Shown here in pieces: positions 12,192 to 24,718 of a DNA stretch of 64,000 bases. The notes under the pieces are model-generated. The model worked only from the letters and a program-made list of their open reading frames with translations, was not told the DNA's origin and ran no database searches. Each line of letters opens with the position of its first letter. Within the stretch, counting starts at the first letter, position 1. The DNA is from Candidatus Latescibacterota bacterium (GTDB lineage Bacteria; Latescibacterota; UBA2968; GCA-2709665): assembly GCA_965248435.1 (NCBI GenBank), contig OZ252100.1, positions 608,001 to 672,000 of the forward strand, read 5' to 3'. A program made the position numbers and the translations under genes.

Positions 12192-12596
12192 TCACGCAGC
12201 CCGCTCCTCGCTCTGATCGGGAATCTGCGCAACCACCCACTCCAGTGCGCCCCTTTTCCAAGCGTAGGCCAGTCCCACGAGGAGGATCGCCACAAAGATC
12301 ATCATCTCCACAAAGGCAAACCACCCGTACTGCATCAGGTCTTTGACGACCACGGCCCAGGGGTAAAGGAAAACGATCTCCACGTCGAAGATAATAAAAA
12401 CGAGAGCGACCACGTAGAAACGGATGTTGAACTGGATCCAGGACCCGCCCACCGGCTCTTCACCACACTCATACGTACTCAGCTTTTCGGCCGAGGGGTT
12501 CTTTGGACGGATAAGGCTCCCTAAAAACAGGTTGAAGATGATGAAGAAAGTACCTATACCTAGAAAAATCAATACATTAGCATAATCGATCAGCAT
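12192..12596 (-). CDS. nuoA: NADH-quinone oxidoreductase subunit A
   Basis: [26 protein letters not shown] and GALEW. Confidence 0.95.
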
Positions 12597-12833: not shown

Positions 12834-12865
12834 AACTTGACAATAAAGTATAGTTAAGTTATGTT
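12834..12865 (+). promoter_or_regulatory. Putative sigma70 promoter of the suf operon, overlapped by a candidate Rrf2/IscR-type operator
   Basis: TTGACA(12837)-N17-TATGTT(12860); imperfect palindrome AACTTGAC-N11-GTTAAGTT at 12834-12860. Confidence 0.6.
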
Positions 12866-12954
12866 TGGAGCTTGGAGGAGGGGCTTATTCACACGCTAAA
12901 CGTAAGAAAAGTTCCGCTTCTTCGCCACACATACTTTGCAGAAAGGGCCACTTG

Positions 12955-14421
12955 ATGAGCGGCGAAGTGAAACAACTGGAAGAACTCGCGGAGAGCGACT
13001 ACAAATACGGGTTCGTAACCAATATCGAGCAAGATTCGGCGCCGCCTGGGCTGAACGAAGACACCATCCGATTCATCTCCGCAAAGAAGAATGAGCCGGA
13101 ATGGCTCGTGGAATGGCGCCTTAAGGCCTATCACCACTGGCTCAAGATGGACGATCCGACGCGACGGCCCAAGAGCCGGCAGTGGGCCAGGGTCACCTAT
13201 CCCGACATCGACTATCAGGACATCATCTACTATTCCGCACCGAAAAAGGGGGGTGGACCGAGCAGCCTGGACGAGGTGGACCCGGAGCTCCTCTTGACTT
13301 ACGAGAAGCTGGGCATCCCACTCGAAGAACAGAAAATGCTGTCCGGCGTTGCGGTAGACGCCGTCTTCGACTCCGTTTCCGTGGCCACAACGTTCCAGGG
13401 AAAACTGGCCGAGGAGGGCATCATCTTCGGTCCCTTCTCCGAAGCCGTCCAGGAACATCCCGACCTTGTGCGGAAATACCTCGGGTCCGTGGTTCCCTAC
13501 AACGACAACTTTTTCGCTGCATTGAACTCCGCGGTGTTCACCGACGGTTCATTCTGCTACATCCCCAAAGGGGTGCGTTGCCCGATGGAGCTTTCCACCT
13601 ATTTTCGGATCAACGCATCCAAGACGGGCCAGTTCGAGCGGACCCTCATCATCGCCGACGAAGGCAGCTACGTCAGCTACCTCGAGGGATGTACCGCGCC
13701 GATGCGGGACGAAAACCAGCTCCACGCCGCCGTCGTCGAGCTGGTGACCCACGACGACGCGCAGATAAAGTATTCCACCATCCAGAACTGGTATCCCGGC
13801 AATGCAGAGGGTAAGGGTGGTATCTATAACTTCGTGACCAAGCGAGGCGCGTGCCGGGGTGCAAACTCCAAGATCTCCTGGACACAGGTCGAAACCGGCT
13901 CGGCCATCACCTGGAAGTATCCCAGCTGTATCCTTCAAGGCGATAACTCTGTCGGCGAATTTTATTCGATAGCCGTAACCACCGGGCATCAACAGGCCGA
14001 CACCGGGACCAAGATGATCCACATCGGCAAGAACACCAGAAGCACGGTCATATCGAAGGGGATTTCCGGCATCTACGGCCAGAATACCTACCGGGGCGGC
14101 GTAAAAGTCCTCAAGGGCGCAGACCGGGCAAGGAACTTTACACAGTGTGACTCGCTGCTCATCGGCGATCGCTGCGGAGCGCACACCTTCCCTTACATCG
14201 AGGTCAAGAATCCGACGGCGCAGGTGGAGCACGAGGCCTCCACATCCAAGATCGGCGAGGATCAGATCTTCTACTGTAACCAGCGAGGAATCCCGACCGA
14301 AGACGCCGTTTCTATGATCGTCAACGGCTTCTGCAAGGAGGTCCTTGCAGAGCTGCCCATGGAGTTCGCGGTCGAAGCCCAGAAACTGCTCGGCATCAGT
14401 CTCGAGGGCAGCGTCGGCTAA
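12955..14421 (+). CDS. sufB: Fe-S cluster assembly protein SufB
   Basis: [24 protein letters not shown] and C-terminal LEGSVG. Confidence 0.97.
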
Positions 14422-14438
14422 AACGAGTGGAGGAACGG

Positions 14439-15212
14439 ATGCTCGAAGTCAAGAATCTGCACGCAAGCGTCGAGGGCAATGAGATCCTTCGCGGCGTTAA
14501 CCTCAGCGTCGGCCGAGGCGAAATCCACGCGATTATGGGCCCGAACGGGTCAGGCAAGTCTACCCTGGCGCAGGTCCTGGCAGGACACGAGGCGTATGAA
14601 GTCACTGAAGGCGAGGTCATCTATCAGGGCGAAAACCTGCTGGAGCTTAACGCCGACGAGCGAGCACGGAAGGGGATCTTCATGGCCTTCCAGTACCCCG
14701 TGGAGATCCCGGGCGTCAACAGCGCCTATTTCCTCAAGGCGGCCCTGAACGAGGTCCGAAAAGCGCGGGGTGAGGAGGAACTGGATGCCCTCGATTTCCT
14801 GTCGCTGTCCAGGGAAAGGCTCAAACTGGTCGACATGGACGAAAGCCTTCTTAAGCGCTCCCTCAACGAGGGTTTTTCTGGGGGTGAAAAGAAGCGCAAC
14901 GAGATCTTTCAGATGGCGGTCCTGGAGCCCAAACTTGCGATTATGGACGAAACCGACTCCGGACTCGACATCGATGCGCTCAAGATCGTCGCGAACGGGG
15001 TGAACACCCTTCACGCACAGCAACCCAAAAGTTCGGTCGTCGTGGTGACCCACTATCAGAGACTGCTCGACTACATCGTTCCCGACCAGGTTCACGTCTT
15101 ACTCAACGGCCGAATCGTCAGATCGGGCGGGAAGGACCTGGCTCTGCAGCTGGAGGAAAAAGGTTACGATTGGATTCGGGAAGCGCACGAGGCAGAAGCC
15201 GTCACCGTATAG
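14439..15212 (+). CDS. sufC: Fe-S cluster assembly ATPase SufC
   Basis: [19 protein letters not shown] and [12 protein letters not shown]. Confidence 0.97.
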
Positions 15213-15227
15213 GGGAACAGCCTAACC

Positions 15228-16568
15228 ATGGCACAGCCCGCACCGGACGCAAAGGATGCCTACCTTTCTGCCTACAGGGAATTCGAGAAGGGTCTGAACG
15301 GAGCCAGCCGCTCGCCCATCGACAGACTGCGCAGGCAGGCTGTCGATCGGTTTGAAAGCCTCGAATTTCCGACGACGGCGGATGAGGCTTGGCGATACAC
15401 GAACGTGGCTCCGATTGTAAGCACCTCGTTCAAGCAGGTGATGAGCGGCACTCCGCCTCGGCTGTCTGCGAAGCAGATCAAGCCCTTCACGTTCAACGGG
15501 ACCCAATTGGTCTTCGTGAACGGCCAGTACGCTCCGGAGCTTTCTTCGCTCGAAAATCTGCCCCGTGGAGCCAAGGCTGTTTGCCTAAAGGCGGCTATCG
15601 ACTCCGACGATGACCTCCTGTCAAGGCACCTCGGTCAACACGCGGACTATGAAGCGCAGCCCTTTACCGCGCTCAACACTGCATTCGTCCACGACGGGGC
15701 GCTTATCCATGTTCCAGGCAACACGGTCGTCGAAGCACCGATCAACGTCCTCTTTGTTTCGACCGCGAACGGACAACCGACCGTCTCCCACCCGCGCTGC
15801 CTCGTTCTTGCCGAATCCCACAGCCAGGTTTCGATCGTCGAAACCTACGCGGGACTTGGGACAACCCCCTACTTCACGAATGCGGTTACCGAGATCGTAG
15901 CGGGTGAAAACGCGGTTGTCGACCACTATAAGCTCGTCCTGGAAGGCGACGAGGCCTTCCACGTCGCCACAACACAAACCTGCCAGGAGCACGCCGCCAA
16001 CGTCTCCACTCACACGATCTCCCTGGGGGGACGTCTCGTCCGCAACGACGTTAACGCCCGCCTGTCCGGCGAGGGAGGCGAGGCCACAGTGAATGGTTTC
16101 TACCTGCTCGACGGGGCGCAGCACGTGGATAATCACACGTTGATCGAGCACGTCGAACCTCACTGCACCAGCCACGAGCTCTTCAAGGGCATCCTGGACG
16201 GAAAATCCAAAGGGGTTTTTCGCGGAAAGATTTTCGTCCATCAGAAGGCACAAAAGACAGACGCCTACCAGACCAACCAGAACCTGCTCCTCTCCGGGGA
16301 TGCCGGAGTCACCGCCAAGCCGCAGCTCGAAATCTACGCAGACGACGTCAAGTGTTCTCACGGGGCCACGATCGGCCAGATGGATGAAAATGCCATCTTC
16401 TATCTCAGGTCTCGAGGTCTCGGCCCGGAAGCTGCCCGACAGATCCTGATCCAGGCATTTGCGGACGAAATACTCGACAGGATTCGTGTGGCTCCGGTCA
16501 GGGCGCGTCTAGGCGGTTGGGTCAGAGAAAAATTCGAACGCCTCCCGGGGCTGAGAAAGAAGCAGTGA
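15228..16568 (+). CDS. sufD: Fe-S cluster assembly protein SufD
   Basis: EAWRYT and PQLEIYADDVKCSHGAT. Confidence 0.95.
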   Translation: MAQPAPDAKDAYLSAYREFEKGLNGASRSPIDRLRRQAVDRFESLEFPTTADEAWRYTNVAPIVSTSFKQVMSGTPPRLSAKQIKPFTFNGTQLVFVNGQYAPELSSLENLPRGAKAVCLKAAIDSDDDLLSRHLGQHADYEAQPFTALNTAFVHDGALIHVPGNTVVEAPINVLFVSTANGQPTVSHPRCLVLAESHSQVSIVETYAGLGTTPYFTNAVTEIVAGENAVVDHYKLVLEGDEAFHVATTQTCQEHAANVSTHTISLGGRLVRNDVNARLSGEGGEATVNGFYLLDGAQHVDNHTLIEHVEPHCTSHELFKGILDGKSKGVFRGKIFVHQKAQKTDAYQTNQNLLLSGDAGVTAKPQLEIYADDVKCSHGATIGQMDENAIFYLRSRGLGPEAARQILIQAFADEILDRIRVAPVRARLGGWVREKFERLPGLRKKQ

Positions 16569-16572
16569 TGCG

Positions 16573-17850
16573 ATGAGCCTACCTTCCTACATCCTTACTG
16601 AAGATCCTTCCTGTCCGCTCGTCGAAAGGGCGGGGCCGTTCGACCCGGAAGCAGTCCGTTCTGATTTTCCAGTCCTGAAGCAGATCGTGAACGGCAAACC
16701 GCTCGTCTACCTGGACAATGCGGCGACGGCCCAGAAGCCGCGTCTCGTCATCGATGCACTCCAAAGCTACTACTCGTCTGAAAACGCCAACGTCCATCGG
16801 GGGGTTCACCACCTGAGCCAGGTCGCGACCGATTCCTACGAAGGCGCGCGACACAAAGTTCGACAGTTCCTGAATGCCGCACACGACAAAGAAATCGTCT
16901 TCGTGCGGGGAACGACCGAAGGAATCAATCTCGTGGCACAGACCTTCGGCAGGCAGAACGTGGGGCGGGGGGATGAAATCCTCATCTCCGAAATGGAGCA
17001 CCATTCCAACATCGTTCCCTGGCAGATTCTCTGTGAAGAAAATGGGGCGACCCTGCGCGTCATTCCCATTAATGATCGTGGGGAATTGCTGATGGAGGAG
17101 TACGAGAAGCTGCTCACCCCACGGACGAAGCTCGTTTCGGTCGCACACGTTTCAAATGTCCTCGGCACCCTCAATCCCGTTTACGACATCGTGAACCTCG
17201 CCCATGAGTGCGGTATCCCAGTGCTCTTTGACGGCGCGCAGGCCGTTCCCCATCTGGAGGTGGACGTCCAGGACCTGGATTGCGATTTCTACGTCTTCTC
17301 GAGCCACAAACTTTACGGCCCTACGGGAATCGGCGTACTCTATGGAAAGGCCGAACACCTTGAGGCCATGCCCCCCTATCAAGGTGGGGGAAGCATGATT
17401 CGATCTGTTACGTTCGAAAAAACAACCTATGCCGACCCCCCTAACAAGTTCGAGGCCGGCACGCCTCCAATCTCGGGCGGAATCGGGCTTGGGGCGGCCA
17501 TCGATTACCTGGCACAGATCGGTTTGGACCACGCCGCAGCCCATGAAGCGGACCTCCTGTCCTACGCCACGCAGGTCCTCTCAGAGATACCGGGCCTCAG
17601 ACTCATCGGTACGGCACGGGAAAAAGTGAGCGTGCTTTCGTTCGTACTCGAGGGAGTGCACCCCCACGATATCGGGACTATTCTTGATCAGCAAGGCGTC
17701 GCTGTCCGTGCCGGTCATCACTGCGCGCAGCCTTTGATGCGGCGCTACGGGATTGACGCGACAACCCGCGCAGCCATCGCGTGCTACAACACCAAAAGTG
17801 ACATCGATGCCATGGTCCGCGGTCTCTACAAAGTGCTGGAGATATTCTGA
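16573..17850 (+). CDS. sufS: Cysteine desulfurase SufS
   Basis: YLDNAATAQKP, SSHKLYGPTG and RAGHHCAQP. Confidence 0.95.
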   Translation: MSLPSYILTEDPSCPLVERAGPFDPEAVRSDFPVLKQIVNGKPLVYLDNAATAQKPRLVIDALQSYYSSENANVHRGVHHLSQVATDSYEGARHKVRQFLNAAHDKEIVFVRGTTEGINLVAQTFGRQNVGRGDEILISEMEHHSNIVPWQILCEENGATLRVIPINDRGELLMEEYEKLLTPRTKLVSVAHVSNVLGTLNPVYDIVNLAHECGIPVLFDGAQAVPHLEVDVQDLDCDFYVFSSHKLYGPTGIGVLYGKAEHLEAMPPYQGGGSMIRSVTFEKTTYADPPNKFEAGTPPISGGIGLGAAIDYLAQIGLDHAAAHEADLLSYATQVLSEIPGLRLIGTAREKVSVLSFVLEGVHPHDIGTILDQQGVAVRAGHHCAQPLMRRYGIDATTRAAIACYNTKSDIDAMVRGLYKVLEIF

Positions 17851-17851
17851 C

Positions 17852-18298
17852 ATGCTAGACTTGCGTGAGCTCTACCAACAGGTGATCCTGGATCACAACA
17901 AGAGCCCTCGCAACTTTAGAGAGCTTGTGGATGCCAATCGGTCGGCGGAGGGGTATAACCCCCTCTGTGGCGACAAATTTAGCGTCTATTTAAAGCTTGG
18001 AGATGGCCGGATCGACGATATTACGTTTCAAGGCTCGGGCTGTGCGATCTCGAAGGCCTCCGCCTCGATGATGACTTCCCTCTTAAAGGGACAGAGCGTG
18101 GAGGAAGCCGAAGCGCTCTTCGGAAAATTTCACGACCTGGTGGCGGGGGATACCTCCCCCGACCTCGAGGAGGTAGGCAAGCTTGCCGTGTTTGCAGGTG
18201 TGAAAGAATTCCCGACTCGCATCAAATGTGCAACCCTGGCGTGGCACACGCTGAAAGCAGCGCTCCGGGGAAAAGGGGATCACGTCACGACTGAATAG
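17852..18298 (+). CDS. sufU: SUF-system NifU-like sulfur transfer protein SufU
   Basis: LYQQVILDH, NPLCGD, GCAISKASAS and RIKCATL. Confidence 0.92.
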   Translation: MLDLRELYQQVILDHNKSPRNFRELVDANRSAEGYNPLCGDKFSVYLKLGDGRIDDITFQGSGCAISKASASMMTSLLKGQSVEEAEALFGKFHDLVAGDTSPDLEEVGKLAVFAGVKEFPTRIKCATLAWHTLKAALRGKGDHVTTE

Positions 18299-18316
18299 AA
18301 ATAGGAGGCAATCCTG

Positions 18317-18856
18317 GTGCTTAGAAGATTCCTAAATCGAGCCTTTCAGAGTACGATGAACCGACTATTCAATCTTCCGGCCGAGGCTCCGAAGCAGACC
18401 GAAACACCTCAAGCGGCGGATCCGAAAACGAAAGAGGAAGAGACGAGTCCGGTTAACGTCCAGGCCCTGACCTCCTACGGGGACCAGAAGTCGGAGGAGG
18501 TTGTAGAGCGCACGGCACAGCTAGAAGCCTCAGCTGAGCCGGGCGTGGACGCCACCGACGTGGAAAAGAAGATTGTGGAGATTATTGGCACGGTCTACGA
18601 CCCCGAGATTCCAGTAAACATCTATGAACTCGGACTGATCTACGAAACCCGTATCGAGCCATCTGGAATGGCGCACGTCAAGATGACCCTTACCTCTCCG
18701 AACTGCCCGGCCGCGGCCACACTCCCCGCGGAGGTAGAGAGCAAGGTTCGCAGCGTTCCTGGCGTCAGAGATGTCGTTCTGGACCTGGTCTTCGATCCAC
18801 CCTGGAATCCCGATATGATGTCCGAGGCCGCGAAACTCGAACTTGGCATGCTGTAA
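18317..18856 (+). CDS. sufT: SufT/DUF59 Fe-S maturation protein with an N-terminal extension
   Basis: DPEIPVNIYELGLIY, MTLTSPNCP and FDPPW. Confidence 0.88.
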   Translation: MLRRFLNRAFQSTMNRLFNLPAEAPKQTETPQAADPKTKEEETSPVNVQALTSYGDQKSEEVVERTAQLEASAEPGVDATDVEKKIVEIIGTVYDPEIPVNIYELGLIYETRIEPSGMAHVKMTLTSPNCPAAATLPAEVESKVRSVPGVRDVVLDLVFDPPWNPDMMSEAAKLELGML

Positions 18857-18889
18857 CAACCCGATTTTGGCACAGAACGGGGGCGGGAA

Positions 18890-19375
18890 ATGAAGCTGAG
18901 TGCTCAGGAAGAATACGGACTGCGGTGCCTCATTCAGATTGGTCGGAACGAACTCGAGGTCGGTGGTGACCTCACGATTGCGGAAATCAGCCAGGCGGAG
19001 GGGCTTTCCATCCCGAACGTGGCGAAGCTGATGCGCATCTTACGGCTAGGAGGCTTCGTGGATAGCGCCAGGGGCCAGGCCGGTGGCTACAGGCTTTCAA
19101 GACCCGCCGATCAGATCGTCGTGGGTGACGTCCTTGCGGTTCTGGGAGGACGTCTCTTTGGCCCGAACTTCTGCGATGAGCACACCGGAGTCGCCGAGCT
19201 CTGCACGCATTCTGTAGACTGCTCCGTCCGCTCGCTTTGGAACGCCGTGCAGTCCGTAATCGACCAAATGCTCGGCCGCGTTACACTCAAAGATCTGCTG
19301 GTTCGCGAGGAAGATGAACTGAGCGGATGCTTTCGGGATATGGCCGACGATGTTCTCCGGGTCGTTCCCAATTGA
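18890..19375 (+). CDS. Rrf2-family transcriptional regulator (three Cys, Fe-S type)
   Basis: EEYGLRCL, SARGQAGGYRL and C-x9-C-x5-C. Confidence 0.9.
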   Translation: MKLSAQEEYGLRCLIQIGRNELEVGGDLTIAEISQAEGLSIPNVAKLMRILRLGGFVDSARGQAGGYRLSRPADQIVVGDVLAVLGGRLFGPNFCDEHTGVAELCTHSVDCSVRSLWNAVQSVIDQMLGRVTLKDLLVREEDELSGCFRDMADDVLRVVPN

Positions 19376-19436
19376 CGCACTGCCTGATTCTTCGTATCAT
19401 ACTTACACTGCGATGATTCGATAACTGGAGATCGAA

Positions 19437-19958
19437 ATGGGCTTGGAGACGAACCTAGGCGAGAACGTAATTACCACCACGCTGGACAAGATGATCAATT
19501 GGGCTCGGAAGAGCTCGCTCTGGCCGATGCCCTTCGGCACAGCGTGCTGTGCCATCGAAATGATGGCTACGCTTTCTGGACGCTTCGACATGGCGCGTTT
19601 CGGGGCCGAGGCTGTCCGCTTCTCGCCGAGACAGTCGGATCTTCTGATCGTGTCAGGCCGAGTCTGTATCAAAATGATGCCTGTGCTGAAAAAGATCTAC
19701 GACCAGATGCCCGATCCAAAGTGGGTGATTTCGATGGGGGCCTGCGCCTCTTCCGGGGGGGTCTTCAACACATATACGATGGTTCAGGGTGTGGATCAAT
19801 TTCTTCCCGTCGATGTCTACGTCCCGGGTTGCCCACCTCGGCCGGAAGATCTGCTGTACGCGCTGATGAAAATTCAAGATAAGATAGACCGAGAACATCC
19901 AACTAAAAGTGTCGAACAGGGCAGTCAGGGCAAAGCTGCCTTACACGCCGGAGGATAA
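19437..19958 (+). CDS. nuoB: Orphan second NuoB-family [4Fe-4S] subunit
   Basis: [25 protein letters not shown] and GCPPRPE. Confidence 0.9.
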
Positions 19959-19960
19959 CA

Positions 19961-20542
19961 ATGGTAACCGTTACCGAGGTTGCACAGAAAGAAGTCGTCA
20001 GGCTCATGGAAGACCAGGAGGCCAAGTTGAACGGTGTCAGGGTGAAGGCCGAGGCCACGTCTCCGCTCCAGGCGAACTACCGGCTGTCTTTCCTCGGTGA
20101 GGGCCAGGAAACCCCCGAGGACGAGGTCATCCCGTTCGAGGGCTTCAATGTTTACATCGATTCAGAAAGCTCACCCTTCTGTCAGGACATCACGCTCGAC
20201 TTCGTGGACGGCTTGACCGGAAAGGGTTTCAAAATTGACAACCCGAACCGGGTGCCACCCCACTTGAAGGGCACGGCGGCCGAAAAGGTTCAGCAGATCA
20301 TCGACGACAAAATTAATCCAAGCGTGGCCTCCCACGGAGGGTTCGTGTCTTTGATAGACGTGAAGGACAACGTGGCTTATGTCCAGTTCGGAGGGGGCTG
20401 CCAGGGGTGTGGTATGGTCGACGTCACCCTCAAGCAAGGGGTTGAAGTCCTGATCAAAGAGGCCATACCGGAGATAGAGCAAATCATGGACATCACCGAC
20501 CACGCAGACGGAACAAATCCCTATTACCAGCCTTCGAAGTAA
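19961..20542 (+). CDS. nfuA: NfuA-like Fe-S carrier (degenerate A-type domain plus NifU C-terminal domain)
   Basis: GFKIDNPN, INPSVASHGG, GGGCQGC and DHADGTNPYY. Confidence 0.85.
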   Translation: MVTVTEVAQKEVVRLMEDQEAKLNGVRVKAEATSPLQANYRLSFLGEGQETPEDEVIPFEGFNVYIDSESSPFCQDITLDFVDGLTGKGFKIDNPNRVPPHLKGTAAEKVQQIIDDKINPSVASHGGFVSLIDVKDNVAYVQFGGGCQGCGMVDVTLKQGVEVLIKEAIPEIEQIMDITDHADGTNPYYQPSK

Positions 20543-20545
20543 GGG

Positions 20546-21982
20546 ATGCACACCAGAATCCGGAACAACGACGGCCCAGCTCTGAAAGTCGTTCTCATTT
20601 CGACTTACGAGTTGGGCCGTCAGCCTTTTGGCCTGGCCTCCCCCGCTGCCTGGCTGAGGCGTGCGGGGATGGAGGTCGCCACCGCCGACCTCTCAGTTGG
20701 AGATCTGCCCGAAGCAGCAGTAATCGCAGCTGATCTTGTTGCGTTCTACATCCCCATGTACACCGCAACCCGCCTTGCCGTGCCGGTCGTGGAACGCGTA
20801 AAGGCTGCAAACCCCCATACGCACATCTGCTTTTATGGTCTTTACGCCTCCGTAAACGAAATCTATCTACGAAATCTGGGCGCCCAAACCATCCTCGGGG
20901 GAGAGTTCGAAGCAGGTCTGCTCCACCTCGCCAACTCACTTCAGGAATCGCGAGTCATCCACGAAAGGCAGACGGGGCCGGTCGTCTCTCTAGAGCGGCA
21001 GGATTTCCTGATCCCCGACAGAAGCGATCTTCCCCCGCTCTCCAGGTATGCCCGGCTCAAGGACGTGGACGATTCAGAGAAACAGGTCGGCTATGTAGAG
21101 GCCAGCCGAGGCTGCAAACACCTCTGCCGACATTGTCCGGTCGTACCGGTTTACGCTGGGAAATTCAGGATCGTCCAGCCTGAAATCGTGTTGGAGGACA
21201 TCCGCCGGCAGGTGTCCGCGGGGGCAGAGCACATCACGTTCGGAGATCCCGACTTTTTTAACGGGATCGGTCACGCCCTTCCTCTGGTCGAGACCCTTCA
21301 AAGGGAATTCCCAGATCTGACCTACGATGTGACGATCAAGGTCGAGCACCTCCTCCAGCACGCGAAGCATATCCCAACCCTTCGGGAAACCGGATGCAAA
21401 ATCATCACGACGGCCGTGGAATCGCTCGACGATACCGTCCTTTTCAAGTTGAACAAAGGCCACACCCGCGCAGACTTTATCCAGGCGCTCCAGATCTGCC
21501 GAGAGCATCTCATCACTTTGAATCCCACATTCATTCCGTTTTCTCCGTGGACCACGGCTGAGGGATATGCAGATCTCCTGGAAACCCTCAGCGATCTGGA
21601 ACTGATCGAAGAGGTCGCACCCGTCCAGTTGGCCATTCGCCTCCTGATACCTGAAGGGTCTCTGCTCCTGGAGCTAGCTGACATTCAGGAAGTGATTGCG
21701 CCTTTCCATCCGCAAAGCCTGAGTTACCCCTGGAAGCACGCAGAGCCGCGCGTCGACCAGCTTCAGGAAGTCATCAGCGGGATCATCAAAAGAGGTTTAG
21801 CCGAAAAGGCGTCCAGGAAAGAGATCTTCGGAGCGGTCTGGGAAGAGGCAAACACTTTGGCGGACCGCGCTCCGCCCGTTTATGACCCGGCGCCCCAACC
21901 GTCCCTTGCTACAATCCCCTACCTGACCGAGCCATGGTATTGCTGAGCGGAACCGACCGAAGAGCAGTTTGCTCTTACGTAG
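20546..21982 (+). CDS. CUAEP-tail radical SAM selenoprotein (Sec at TGA 21944-21946), 478 aa
   Basis: ASRGCKHLCRHC radical SAM motif and an N-terminal B12-binding-like domain; the frame continues through TGA as WYC-U-AEPTEEQFALT to TAG at 21980-21982. Confidence 0.88.
21958..21979 (+). promoter_or_regulatory. Candidate bacterial SECIS hairpin
   Basis: CG-AAGAGCA-GTT-TGCTCTT-A-CG stem-loop; the loop G lies 21 nt after the in-frame UGA. Confidence 0.7.
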
Positions 21983-22020
21983 ATGTGCAGGCGATGTTGT
22001 GATTCATAGAAAGGCAACCG

Positions 22021-22359
22021 ATGACGATTCAAGAATTGGCAGCAAGGTTTCCAGAGATCCCGGAAGACCTGCACGACGAACCTCAGCTCGCTCGATTTGG
22101 AGAGGCCTTTGGCGAACAGCTTCAGGTCGCGCAGAACCCGGGCGCCTGCTCTTCCGAATACTCGGCAGGCAATCATTATTATCTCAAACTGATCGGGCCG
22201 CTCAGGATCTACATGTACGGTCTGTCGAGTCGCGAAAGGGCACTCTCGCAACTCCAGGAACTGCTCGACCAGTATCAGACTGACCCGGATGGCTTTCTTG
22301 CCGGACTGGTCCCGCAGGACGCCGCCGAACAAGAGCTCAGAGGTCCGGGCTGCCAATGA
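22021..22359 (+). CDS. Small hypothetical protein (112 aa; GAC motif and C-terminal GPGCQ)
   Basis: ATG after GAAAGG, 38 nt downstream of the extended radical SAM stop. Confidence 0.75.
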   Translation: MTIQELAARFPEIPEDLHDEPQLARFGEAFGEQLQVAQNPGACSSEYSAGNHYYLKLIGPLRIYMYGLSSRERALSQLQELLDQYQTDPDGFLAGLVPQDAAEQELRGPGCQ

Positions 22360-22366
22360 CAACGAC

Positions 22367-23608
22367 TCACCGGTCTGAAATACCGATTCCGAGCATCCCA
22401 TAGGACTTCCTCAATGCGACCTCCACCCGCTCGGGCGAACCCTCCCGTGCGAAGATAAACCCGAGGTATTTCGATCCTTCGGGCAGGGGTTCGACCCGCT
22501 CGCCGATCGGGATCGTCACGGCGAGATCTTCGATCCCCGGAACCGCTCTCGCTGACTCCAGTCCCGTCACTTTTTCGAGCCGCCCCTTCGCTGGAACAGG
22601 GATCATCATCACGCCGGACGCGTCCGAACGGGACTGCACGGCGCTTTCGATCTCCAGCCCCAATGCGTGTCGAATGATCAACGTCTCCAGCGACATCCCC
22701 GCCCCGAACTTCAAGGTCCTCGAGCACAGCCCACCGATTGAACGGCCTGCGACCTCCAAGATCCACACACCCTTTGAGTTGACTCTGAGTTCCGCGTGGA
22801 CTGGTCCCTCTTCGAGGCCCAGCGCCGAAGAGGCCTCTACAGTCGCTTCCCGTATGTCCTCCTGAAGGCCGGCGTCCAGCCGGGACGGTGTAATGTAGAA
22901 GGTTTCCTCGAAGTAGGGACCTTCGAGCGGGTCTGGTTTGTCAAACAGGGCAAGGACGTGGAGCTCCCCCCGGATCAACAATCCCTCGAGCGCGACCTCG
23001 CTCCCCGGGATAAAATCTTCAACCAGGATTTCATTCGCTGGCAATTCACCTTTTCCCTTCACATCATCTCTTCGAAGAAACGCCGTGATCCGCTCAAAGG
23101 CCGACACAAAAGAACCCGGATCATCCGCTCGAATCACGCCGCGGCTGGCGCTGAGGAAGATCGGCTTCAAGACACACGGGAATCGAATCTCCTCGGCGAC
23201 TTCGTCCGGATTAGTCTCAATTGAAAAAGGCCTGAACCCAGGAGAGGGCAGGCCTTTCGCCGCGAATTTCTGTCTCATCAGAAGCTTGTTTCGCGATGCC
23301 TGAACGGAGGAAGCGGAATTGTGGCGCAACCCCAGGGCCTCGTTCGCGACGGACGCGAGCACGACCGAGTCGTCATCCACACCCAGGACTGCGTCGAGCT
23401 GATATCGTTCGGCGAACTCCAGAATCTCCTGGGCTGCTACCCCGGGTCTCGAAAAATCCAACGCGATCGTCTTCCCCGGAGTCAGGTCGGCCAGGGCCTG
23501 GCGGCGGTCGGATCCCACGACCACCTCGACTTCAAGCGCCTCCGCCGCCTTCATGAAATCGGGCGCTCGATACGTGGTTGTAGGCAGTAGGAGCAGGACG
23601 CGGCCCAT
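22367..23608 (-). CDS. ATP-grasp domain protein (L-amino-acid ligase-like)
   Basis: RNKLLMRQ, FPCVLKP, SASRGVIRAD, EDFIPGSEVALE, HAELRV and LEVAGRSIGG. Confidence 0.9.
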   Translation of the reverse strand: MGRVLLLLPTTTYRAPDFMKAAEALEVEVVVGSDRRQALADLTPGKTIALDFSRPGVAAQEILEFAERYQLDAVLGVDDDSVVLASVANEALGLRHNSASSVQASRNKLLMRQKFAAKGLPSPGFRPFSIETNPDEVAEEIRFPCVLKPIFLSASRGVIRADDPGSFVSAFERITAFLRRDDVKGKGELPANEILVEDFIPGSEVALEGLLIRGELHVLALFDKPDPLEGPYFEETFYITPSRLDAGLQEDIREATVEASSALGLEEGPVHAELRVNSKGVWILEVAGRSIGGLCSRTLKFGAGMSLETLIIRHALGLEIESAVQSRSDASGVMMIPVPAKGRLEKVTGLESARAVPGIEDLAVTIPIGERVEPLPEGSKYLGFIFAREGSPERVEVALRKSYGMLGIGISDR

Positions 23609-23622
23609 TGAGGTCGATCCGC

Positions 23623-23997
23623 CTATCCTCGATCAACTCCGGCCGGTTCCTCTGTCTTCTTCTTTTCCCGTTTCTCTCGAAACTCTCTGACCTTTTTGAT
23701 CACATCGGGGGCCAGTTCCAGGAGCTTTCGAAAGGACATATCACCCTCCTGAAGCGGAAGGAGCTGCGCCTTACCGTCGCGAATCACGATAAAGGCGACC
23801 GGTTCGACTGAGCCGCCTCCCCCGGTTCCGCTCCCCCGGTCCCCTCTGTTCCCCCCGGCACCAAAACCGAAGGAAATCTTGGAAACGGGAACGATCACCG
23901 TCTCCCCGACAACCATCGGTTCTCCGATCACGGTTTCCGTCTTAACGATCTGCCGAAACTCCTGCATCATCGTCTTGATCAAGTCCTCGACCGACAT
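23623..23997 (-). CDS. GerW/YtfJ-family protein
   Basis: TVIGEP...IVPVSKISFGFGAGG...GGGGSVEPVAFIVI. Confidence 0.85.
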   Translation of the reverse strand: MSVEDLIKTMMQEFRQIVKTETVIGEPMVVGETVIVPVSKISFGFGAGGNRGDRGSGTGGGGSVEPVAFIVIRDGKAQLLPLQEGDMSFRKLLELAPDVIKKVREFREKREKKKTEEPAGVDRG

Positions 23998-24019: not shown

Positions 24020-24718
24020 TCAATTCGTTCTGCCGATCCTTTTATGTCTCCATCGATTCCAGTAGTAGGATAAGCCGACCCCGCCCGCTTGACAAGCCAG
24101 ACAGGCCACTGCCCACAAGATTCTGTGCAAATAAACGGCCAGCTCCACTTCGGCTTCCCCTTCCAGCCGTTCCTGATCGAAATCGGGGGCCAGAGCCAAA
24201 TCTACTCCGGGTCCCGTCGCGCCTGAGATCGCCAACGAGTAGCCGAATACTTGACCCGTGGTGACCGGATCTGAAGCCCCGAACACGACATCACACGACA
24301 GCCTGCGGACTCGAAATCCGCCGATCAGGCGCATCAGGAACCGCAAGACAGATCTTCTGAGTCTCTTGAAAAAGTACCAAATCGGACCCGCGGCGAACAG
24401 CCTCTGTTTCAGACCGGGTGTCTCCTGCTCTGGCTCGATCTCGGCCGGTTCAGCGGTTTCAACGGGCTCAACCGGCTCGGGAACCGGCTTCTTTCCACGC
24501 TTCAGATGGAAATTCCAGGGCGCCCAACGCCAAACCATCGGGCCCAAACGTAGTCTCTTCTCCTCATAGATGACCTGGATTCCGCAGAGTCCGTTCCACG
24601 GCCGCACCCATCCTCGAAGCAGACCGGCCTCCGGTGAGTATTGCCCCCATCCTCCCAAGCGGACCGGGAGGAAGAGCAGCAGGAGAATCGCGATAAAGAG
24701 GAGAAGAATCACTGTCAC
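24020..24718 (-). CDS. DUF2953 (YtfI-like) membrane-anchored protein
   Basis: FGASDPVTTGQVFG...PDF motif; N-terminal hydrophobic segment; usual partner of ytfJ. Confidence 0.7.
   Translation of the reverse strand: MTVILLLFIAILLLLFLPVRLGGWGQYSPEAGLLRGWVRPWNGLCGIQVIYEEKRLRLGPMVWRWAPWNFHLKRGKKPVPEPVEPVETAEPAEIEPEQETPGLKQRLFAAGPIWYFFKRLRRSVLRFLMRLIGGFRVRRLSCDVVFGASDPVTTGQVFGYSLAISGATGPGVDLALAPDFDQERLEGEAEVELAVYLHRILWAVACLACQAGGVGLSYYWNRWRHKRIGRTN

Follow-up and report, generated by a model that had tools for sequence, protein, structure and literature searches.

A CUAEP-tail radical SAM (seleno)protein and an L-amino-acid-ligase-type ATP-grasp enzyme form a conserved pair with possible ArsL-like chemistry

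We analyzed a 64,000-nucleotide (nt) stretch of a Candidatus Latescibacterota genome (contig OZ252100.1, positions 608,001 to 672,000; hereafter, the window) that encodes a radical S-adenosylmethionine (SAM) protein with a predicted C-terminal cysteine-selenocysteine (Cys-Sec) tail and, convergent with it, an ATP-grasp ligase. Comparison with related loci and genomes shows that these two genes are a conserved two-enzyme unit with an iron-sulfur (Fe-S) helper. Judged by sequence, ArsL, the radical SAM enzyme of arsinothricin synthesis, is by far the nearest characterized relative of the radical SAM protein. We lean slightly toward a single pathway in which an ArsL-type transfer is followed by ligation of the product. 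Below, L numbers refer to loci and G numbers to genomes; G000 is the window's own genome (5.67 Mb in 2 contigs).

The radical SAM protein, its tail, and ArsL

The radical SAM gene lies on the forward strand at 20546..21982 and would encode 478 amino acids (aa), with Sec at position 467. The protein contains the Pfam Radical_SAM domain, a canonical CX3CX2C motif (C190/C194/C197), and the tail EPWYC-U-AEP at residues 462-470, in which C466 and U467 are the Cys-Sec pair. It matches family model NF040546 (CUAEP/CCAEP-tail radical SAM (seleno)protein) at 628.5 bits, above the cut-off of 500, over model positions 1-467 of 468; in the genome search, the score was 621.9 bits. The second-best family was ArsL (NF040542), with 282.6 bits over residues 16-406. 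The third-best family reached only 57.8 bits, and all methylase families trailed ArsL by more than 220 bits. When the comparison was reversed, the ArsL of Priestia scored 366 bits on NF040546.

Relatives of the protein are common. Among species-representative genomes, there were at least 598 matching stretches, of which at least 597 encode a relative. The best 80 of these matches, together with the window, make up the 81 loci that we compared. These 80 relatives come from many phyla and are 54-78% identical to the window's protein; the closest of the matches listed have Latescibacterota titles. The tail motif [E/D]PW[Y/F]C[U/C] is present in 79 of the 81 loci. In a 2022 preprint by Haft, which is the only paper we found that names the CUAEP/CCAEP family, it is called uncharacterized, and CU motifs are tied to organometallic biochemistry.

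We aligned the 80 family members with four ArsL proteins from plasmid records. The window's protein is 29-35% identical to the four over about 410 residues. Both families start with a Rossmann-like domain, which is followed by a radical SAM core with CX3CX2C, and close with a tail that has a vicinal cysteine pair: C466-U467 aligns with the vicinal CC of the ArsL tail, RCCLKC. Where ArsL has C-C-L-K-C, however, this family has C-U-A-E-P, so the second cysteine is usually Sec and the third is gone. Two further cysteines, C95 (95%) and C284 (99%), are near-invariant among the 80 aligned members and specific to the CUAEP family. The four ArsL proteins have Asn, Thr, Thr, and Cys at the first of these sites and Val at the second. 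The first-pass annotation of this DNA, which was made from the sequence alone, had proposed that the enzyme is related to ArsL and had suggested that the N-terminus of ArsL resembles ISTYELGRQP. The family scores and the aligned cysteine pair bear out the first point, and so does the alignment for the second, as LISTYELGRQP in the window's family and LVSNFEGGFQP in ArsL are homologous.

For a structural comparison, we modeled a Cys-type ortholog (L040), with a mean predicted local distance difference test (pLDDT) score of 82.5; the linker before the tail is disordered in the model, and the tail segment scores 74-79. The nearest solved folds are AprD4, OxsB, MgmA, TsrM, MiaB, CysS, TokK, and RimO (TM scores of 0.50-0.64, E values of 1e-13 to 1e-4). 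A sequence search of solved structures did not find one of ArsL. Some of these enzymes (AprD4, OxsB, TsrM, and MgmA) are radical SAM enzymes with a B12-binding domain, but their relation to the window's protein in sequence is marginal, as it is for the methylthiotransferases MiaB and RimO (only 9ccb matched, at E 1.4e-4), and none of them has a conserved Cys-Sec tail at the C-terminus. Pfam's B12-binding domain (PF02310) matches residues 16-123 weakly, at 20.4 bits (threshold 32.1).

Reading the in-frame TGA as Sec is credible because the genome encodes Sec synthesis and insertion genes and a tRNA-Sec that score above their cut-offs and because a hairpin past the TGA is kept with covariation. 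The open reading frame (ORF) at 20546-21946 closes at the TGA (21944-21946, forward strand). Decoding this codon as Sec adds 11 codons, up to a TAG at 21980-21982, and gives the C-terminus ...IPYLTEPWYC-U-AEPTEEQFALT. Across the 81 loci, the codon at this site is TGA in 58 and TGC or TGT in 21, and no motif was found in the other 2. In G000, selA (568.6 bits), selB (370.8 bits), selD (371.7 bits), and tRNA-Sec (74.3 bits) each exceed their cut-offs. They lie side by side at G000:C1:1062487-1067069, and selD itself has one in-frame TGA.

The candidate Sec insertion sequence (SECIS) is a hairpin inside the tail codons (21958..21979, forward strand), with the stem GAAGAGC/GCUCUU and the apical loop AGUUU. 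In the Sec-type loci, the hairpin lies 14-36 nt past the UGA, and its stem shows compensatory changes (GAAGAGC/GCUCUU, GGGGACC/GGUCCCC, and CCGGCC/GGCCGG). The median minimum free energy of the region is -10.1 kcal/mol for 53 distinct Sec-type sequences versus -4.7 kcal/mol for 21 Cys-type sequences, and a stem of at least 5 bp is predicted in 44 of the 53 versus 7 of the 21; as these sequences are related, the test statistic of the comparison overstates the difference. The SECIS region of the window does not fold significantly as a single sequence (z = -1.35); the case for it is carried by the comparative evidence. No Rfam family reached its gathering score in the region.

A Sec-type family member is also found in a cultured organism, on the megaplasmid of Thermomicrobium roseum DSM 5159 (L096:6935-8410). 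The annotation in that record ends at the cysteine ahead of the TGA, and the frame runs on as U-AEPLEDP. The gene adjoins a pyridoxal phosphate-dependent aminotransferase and a major facilitator superfamily (MFS) transporter.

The ligase and its linkage to the radical SAM gene

The ligase gene (22367..23608, reverse strand) encodes a protein of 413 aa whose N-terminus is MGRVLLLLPTTTYRA. By its sequence and domains, it belongs to an L-amino-acid-ligase-type clade. ATP-grasp_4 (PF13535, 105.9 bits), LAL_C2 (PF18603, 53.9 bits), and ATPgrasp_N (PF18130, 34 bits) all match above their thresholds. Among solved structures, it is closest to L-amino acid ligase BL00235 (3vot, E 1.3e-36) and next to BacD (3wo1 and 3vmm, E 2e-18), both of which share this domain arrangement. 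Unlike these, the window's ligase belongs to a clade of its own that is 40-58% identical across phyla and is tied to the CUAEP radical SAM protein. It scores below the cut-off of every named equivalog (70 bits on BacD, against 850, and 59.8 bits on DdaF, against 840).

We searched the 80 related loci with the window's ligase by tblastn. The ligase gene adjoins the radical SAM gene in 49 of them, or in 50 of 81 if the window is counted. In 40 of the 50 pairs, the ligase is directly downstream on the same strand, with gaps of mostly 12-250 nt; in 8, the genes are convergent; and in 2, the ligase is upstream on the same strand. The loci with an adjacent ligase have titles from Acidobacteriota, Methylomirabilota, Latescibacterota, Gemmatimonadota, and Verrucomicrobiia. 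In 10 of the 31 loci without an adjacent ligase, the sequence downstream is shorter than 1.5 kb. The tail in many Acidobacteriota extends for 25-29 residues beyond the Sec or Cys, always ending before the ligase. We considered whether the two genes might be fused and rejected this, as there were 0 fusions in the 50 adjacent pairs. A predicted complex between a Cys-type radical SAM protein and its ligase (the L040 pair) scored 0.00, which gives no verdict either way.

The two genes also occur in the same genomes. For this analysis, we used a profile built from 14 ligases. The radical SAM gene is present in 29 of 151 genomes of the window's phylum, every one with one TGA, and the ligase profile reaches at least 376 bits in exactly these 29 genomes. 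Another 15 genomes of this sample contain ligase paralogs only, at 156-181 bits. Among 201 Acidobacteriota, the radical SAM gene is present in 29 and a ligase with at least 352 bits in 35; both genes are present in 28, the radical SAM gene alone in 1, and weak ligase paralogs only in 3. Of 15 genomes in which no ligase adjoins the radical SAM gene, 10 encode an ortholog-level ligase elsewhere, including the sister genome G001/G062 (76% identity). No such ligase was found in the other 5, among them a Nonomuraea isolate. In Thermomicrobium roseum, there was no ligase ortholog on the megaplasmid; the chromosome was not searched. Within G000, the second contig opens with a partial ligase copy (G000:C2:9-440; profile positions 263-407, 155 bits), which may be an assembly duplicate or contamination.

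ArsL is also accompanied by an ATP-grasp ligase. All four of the ArsL loci that we examined have an ATP-grasp gene inside the arsenic island; these are on plasmids of Priestia (L097:1656-2879), Bacillus cereus (L098:1453-2676), Alicyclobacillus (L099:2436-3668), and Pantoea (L100:7470-8786). In the Pantoea and Alicyclobacillus islands, it shares a row with ArsL, ArsM, and an MFS transporter. The four island ligases are orthologous to each other (35-54% identity) and distant from the window's ligase (22-25% identity; 80-128 bits on the window-ligase profile). Therefore, both radical SAM families adjoin L-amino-acid-ligase-type enzymes, and each has its own ligase clade. The ligases of the ArsL islands also suggest that peptide forms of arsinothricin-type compounds may exist. 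We did not find a paper with both "arsinothricin" and "ATP-grasp" that links the two.

Iron-sulfur helpers and other neighbors

To describe the gene context, we grouped the ORFs from the 81 loci into clusters de novo and then checked these with tblastn. YggX (PF04362, Fe(2+) trafficking) is beside the pair in 40 of the 81 loci. NfuA is directly upstream of the radical SAM gene in 11, including the window, and the two are never found together (0 of 81). Both recur across different gene orders and phyla. Aconitase is present in 31 loci, glucose-6-phosphate dehydrogenase (G6PD) in 16, and DUF169 in 9; 54 loci have one or more of YggX, NfuA, and aconitase. The block of aconitase, G6PD, and glucokinase is mostly found in loci with Acidobacteriota, Terriglobia, or Acidiferrales titles (plus one Verrucomicrobiia and one Dormiibacterota). 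Another apparent conserved neighbor, cluster c9, was rejected because it is the antisense frame of yggX. No arsM, arsR, ACR3, aquaporin, or ArsN was found among the recurring neighbors. ArsL has an ars context, whereas the CUAEP family has NfuA or YggX as neighbors.

In the window, the context of the radical SAM gene is Fe-S assembly, not arsenic. The NfuA-type Fe-S carrier gene (19961..20542, forward strand) stops 3 nt ahead of the radical SAM start; it matches TIGR03341 (E 1.7e-46, below the cut-off) and the Pfam domains NifU and Fe-S_biosyn. Further upstream on the same strand is a row of genes with NCBIfam matches, sufB-sufC-sufD-sufS-sufU-sufT(DUF59)-Rrf2-nuoB-like (12865..19958). This row is lineage-specific context: of the 80 related loci, only L004-L007 have the same row from suf to the nuoB-like gene, and L024 and L069 have a separate suf cluster. 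The lone nuoB-like gene (19437-19958), which lies within the suf-Rrf2-nfuA row, is 89-93% identical to its counterparts in L004-L007, above the conservation of its neighbors. A nuoA gene lies at 12192-12596 on the opposite strand to the nuoB-like gene. On the other side, the ligase is the final gene of a reverse-strand row, convergent with the radical SAM gene, that also contains a DUF2953 gene (24020-24718) and a YtfJ/GerW-like gene (23623-23997). This three-gene row is also found in L005-L007.

Two loci without a ligase have a different row. In L045 (8761-14675) and L079 (9643-13903), the CUAEP radical SAM gene is followed by DUF169, a UbiE-type methyltransferase, and a fusion of a CdhD-like domain with a 2x[4Fe-4S] ferredoxin; the row in L045 continues with a second radical SAM gene, of the B12 type. 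We also asked if the module stands in for glutathione synthesis. A search for GshB (TIGR01380) in the 151 genomes of the window's phylum found none, either in genomes that have the module or in those that lack it; the test therefore cannot discriminate, and the idea was dropped.

Proposed chemistry and its alternatives

To our knowledge, ArsL is the only radical SAM enzyme bearing a canonical motif that uses the aminocarboxypropyl group of SAM, and it has been treated as a rarity of arsenic antibiotics. Its reaction reportedly involves an iron-carbon (Fe-C) intermediate. ArsL cleaves SAM to 5'-methylthioadenosine (MTA) and an aminocarboxypropyl species (10.1101/2024.02.01.577332), and its tail cysteines bind arsenite and are required for activity (10.1101/2024.02.01.577332; 10.64898/2026.04.29.721666). 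On balance, by analogy with ArsL, we slightly favor a pathway in which an ArsL-type transfer of the aminocarboxypropyl group, with a tail-held soft atom as the acceptor, is followed by ligation of the product, so that the radical SAM protein and the ligase work in one pathway. The radical SAM protein would cut SAM at the C-gamma-S bond, and SAM's 3-amino-3-carboxypropyl group would go to a soft nucleophile on the mobile C-terminal Cys-Sec pair, with Cys95 or Cys284 perhaps completing the site. The product would be an amino acid shaped like methionine or arsinothricin, which the ligase would couple to a second amino acid. NfuA (here) or YggX (in most other lineages) would keep the radical SAM cluster loaded, which fits the Fe-C intermediate reported for ArsL. 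The mode of SAM cleavage, the acceptor atom (sulfur, selenium, arsenic, or other), the order of the steps, and the product are what we infer.

Several points weigh against this reading. Members of the CUAEP family are uncharacterized biochemically. The window's protein scores below the ArsL cut-off (282.6 bits, against 450); the third tail cysteine of ArsL aligns with Pro470; and the CUAEP family has a linker insertion, about 45 residues long, ahead of the tail. Because of these differences, the acceptor and even the mode of SAM cleavage may differ from those of ArsL. Between 12.2 and 26.7 kb of the window, no annotated gene is arsM, arsQ/MFS, ArsR, or ArsN, and the whole genome was not searched for arsM. 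As to the linkage, the ligase occurs without the radical SAM gene in 7 of the 201 Acidobacteriota (one of which, G179, is unpublished), although the completeness of these assemblies is not known. Conversely, no ligase was found in the radical SAM genomes G004, G357, G359, G363, G364, and G189, whose completeness is not known either. The ligase threshold, which falls in the gap between 181 and 352-376 bits, was picked after the scores had been seen, and related genomes are not independent in the co-occurrence counts. Finally, the aconitase, G6PD, and glucokinase neighbors may be inherited synteny.

We also weighed whether the chemistry might be more ordinary or run in the reverse order: the ligase would first make a dipeptide or modify an amino acid, and the radical SAM protein would then methylate or otherwise change that product through 5'-deoxyadenosyl chemistry, cobalamin chemistry, or both, with the Cys-Sec tail as a redox or resolving pair. 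The predicted fold, which is nearest to the B12-binding-domain enzymes AprD4, OxsB, MgmA, TsrM, CysS, and TokK (E 1e-13 to 1e-5), the canonical CX3CX2C motif, and the weak B12-binding match are all consistent with this, and how the genes are arranged is not enough to tell which step comes first. However, the B12-binding match is under the Pfam threshold, every methylase family scores more than 220 bits behind ArsL, and ArsL, whose architecture is alike and whose motif is also canonical, yields MTA plus an aminocarboxypropyl species (10.1101/2024.02.01.577332). We consider this alternative unlikely, but it is the one we would take most seriously. AprD4 is a cobalamin-free member of the B12-binding-domain fold class. 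A smaller probability goes to an arsenic or antimony pathway like that of arsinothricin synthesis, in which the tail would bind As(III) and the ligase would make a peptide of an arsenical amino acid. The tail and the CC with which ArsL binds arsenite are homologous, an ATP-grasp ligase is encoded in all four ArsL islands, and CU motifs are tied to organometallic biochemistry in the Haft preprint. Nevertheless, neither the surroundings of the window's gene nor the recurring neighbors of the 81 loci include arsM, arsR, ACR3, an aquaporin, or ArsN; the window's tail does not contain the third arsenite ligand of ArsL; and 54-78% identity across phyla (among the best 80 relatives), along with housekeeping Fe-S neighbors, fits a core cellular role better. 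The missing third cysteine, the extra core cysteines, and a context of Fe-S rather than arsenic genes argue that the substrate is not simply arsenite.

The first-pass annotation had proposed a pathway with three parts, in which a small cysteine-containing protein would serve as a carrier or chaperone for the radical SAM protein and the ligase. The layout it described was exact on re-checking: the Sec-tailed radical SAM gene is followed after 38 nt (from its TAG) by an ORF for a protein of 112 aa (22021..22359, forward strand), which includes NPGAC and ends in GPGCQ, and the stop of this ORF is 7 nt from the 3' end of the convergent ATP-grasp ORF. Both the link to ArsL and the proposed co-occurrence with this ATP-grasp clade have held up, the latter strongly (50 of 81 loci, the same 29 of 151 genomes, and 28 of the 29 Acidobacteriota with the radical SAM gene). 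The role of the small protein has not, because its distribution contradicts it. The protein has no Pfam or NCBIfam match, and its function is unassigned. It does belong to a real conserved family: we found 115 homologs (52-95% identity, 85-139 residues), none with a Pfam domain, in which Cys43 is near-invariant and the C-terminus of the 112-aa forms has GPGC. Its predicted structure is confident (pLDDT 95.2) and all-helical, and it has no neighbor in the Protein Data Bank at E <= 0.001 (best E 1.6). These cysteines and the tight packing of the three genes are what would favor a three-protein pathway, and the small protein also adjoins the radical SAM gene in the sister locus L004 (G062). But this is the only one of the 80 related loci where it does so, and the adjacency is confined to the window's genus; elsewhere in the window's family (17 genomes), the two genes are about 1 Mb apart. 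Across the phylum sample, the small protein is present in 30 of 151 genomes: 21 of the 29 with the radical SAM gene and 9 without it. Families f3 and f4 include 8 genomes with the radical SAM gene, and the small protein was found in none of them. Elsewhere, its neighbors are unrelated genes (in one genome, a metallo-beta-lactamase-fold hydrolase and a short-chain dehydrogenase/reductase; in another, a GFO/IDH/MocA oxidoreductase, DUF2203, and an amidase). We conclude that the small protein is a local neighbor and not part of the radical SAM-ligase pathway; a carrier role for it seems very improbable.

A more specific version of the ArsL-type transfer is speculative, and we give it little weight. 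A persulfide or selenopersulfide on the tail, supplied by the cysteine desulfurase system of the same row, might take the aminocarboxypropyl group; the neighboring Sec or Cys would then set free (seleno)homocysteine or a thioether amino acid related to it, and a dipeptide thiol or selenol for the protection or servicing of Fe-S clusters would be built by the ligase. As a variant suggested by the loci without a ligase, the atom would be methylated after the transfer, as in arsinothricin. If the persulfide version is true, it would account for the YggX, NfuA, suf, and aconitase neighbors. It would also give radical SAM enzymes a new way to form C-S or C-Se bonds, and soil phyla a new low-molecular-weight thiol.

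More broadly, ArsL has a sister family that is far more common than ArsL itself: it is encoded in at least 597 species-representative genomes, it is highly conserved and usually a predicted selenoprotein, and it is tied tightly to a single ligase clade and to Fe-S helpers. The radical SAM protein and the ligase probably make an undescribed amino acid and a dipeptide from it. The identity of the product would tell whether ArsL-type chemistry has a mainstream cellular function and would define a role for the rare Cys-Sec motif. It could also reveal that bacteria abundant in soil and sediment make an amino acid or a dipeptide that is new.

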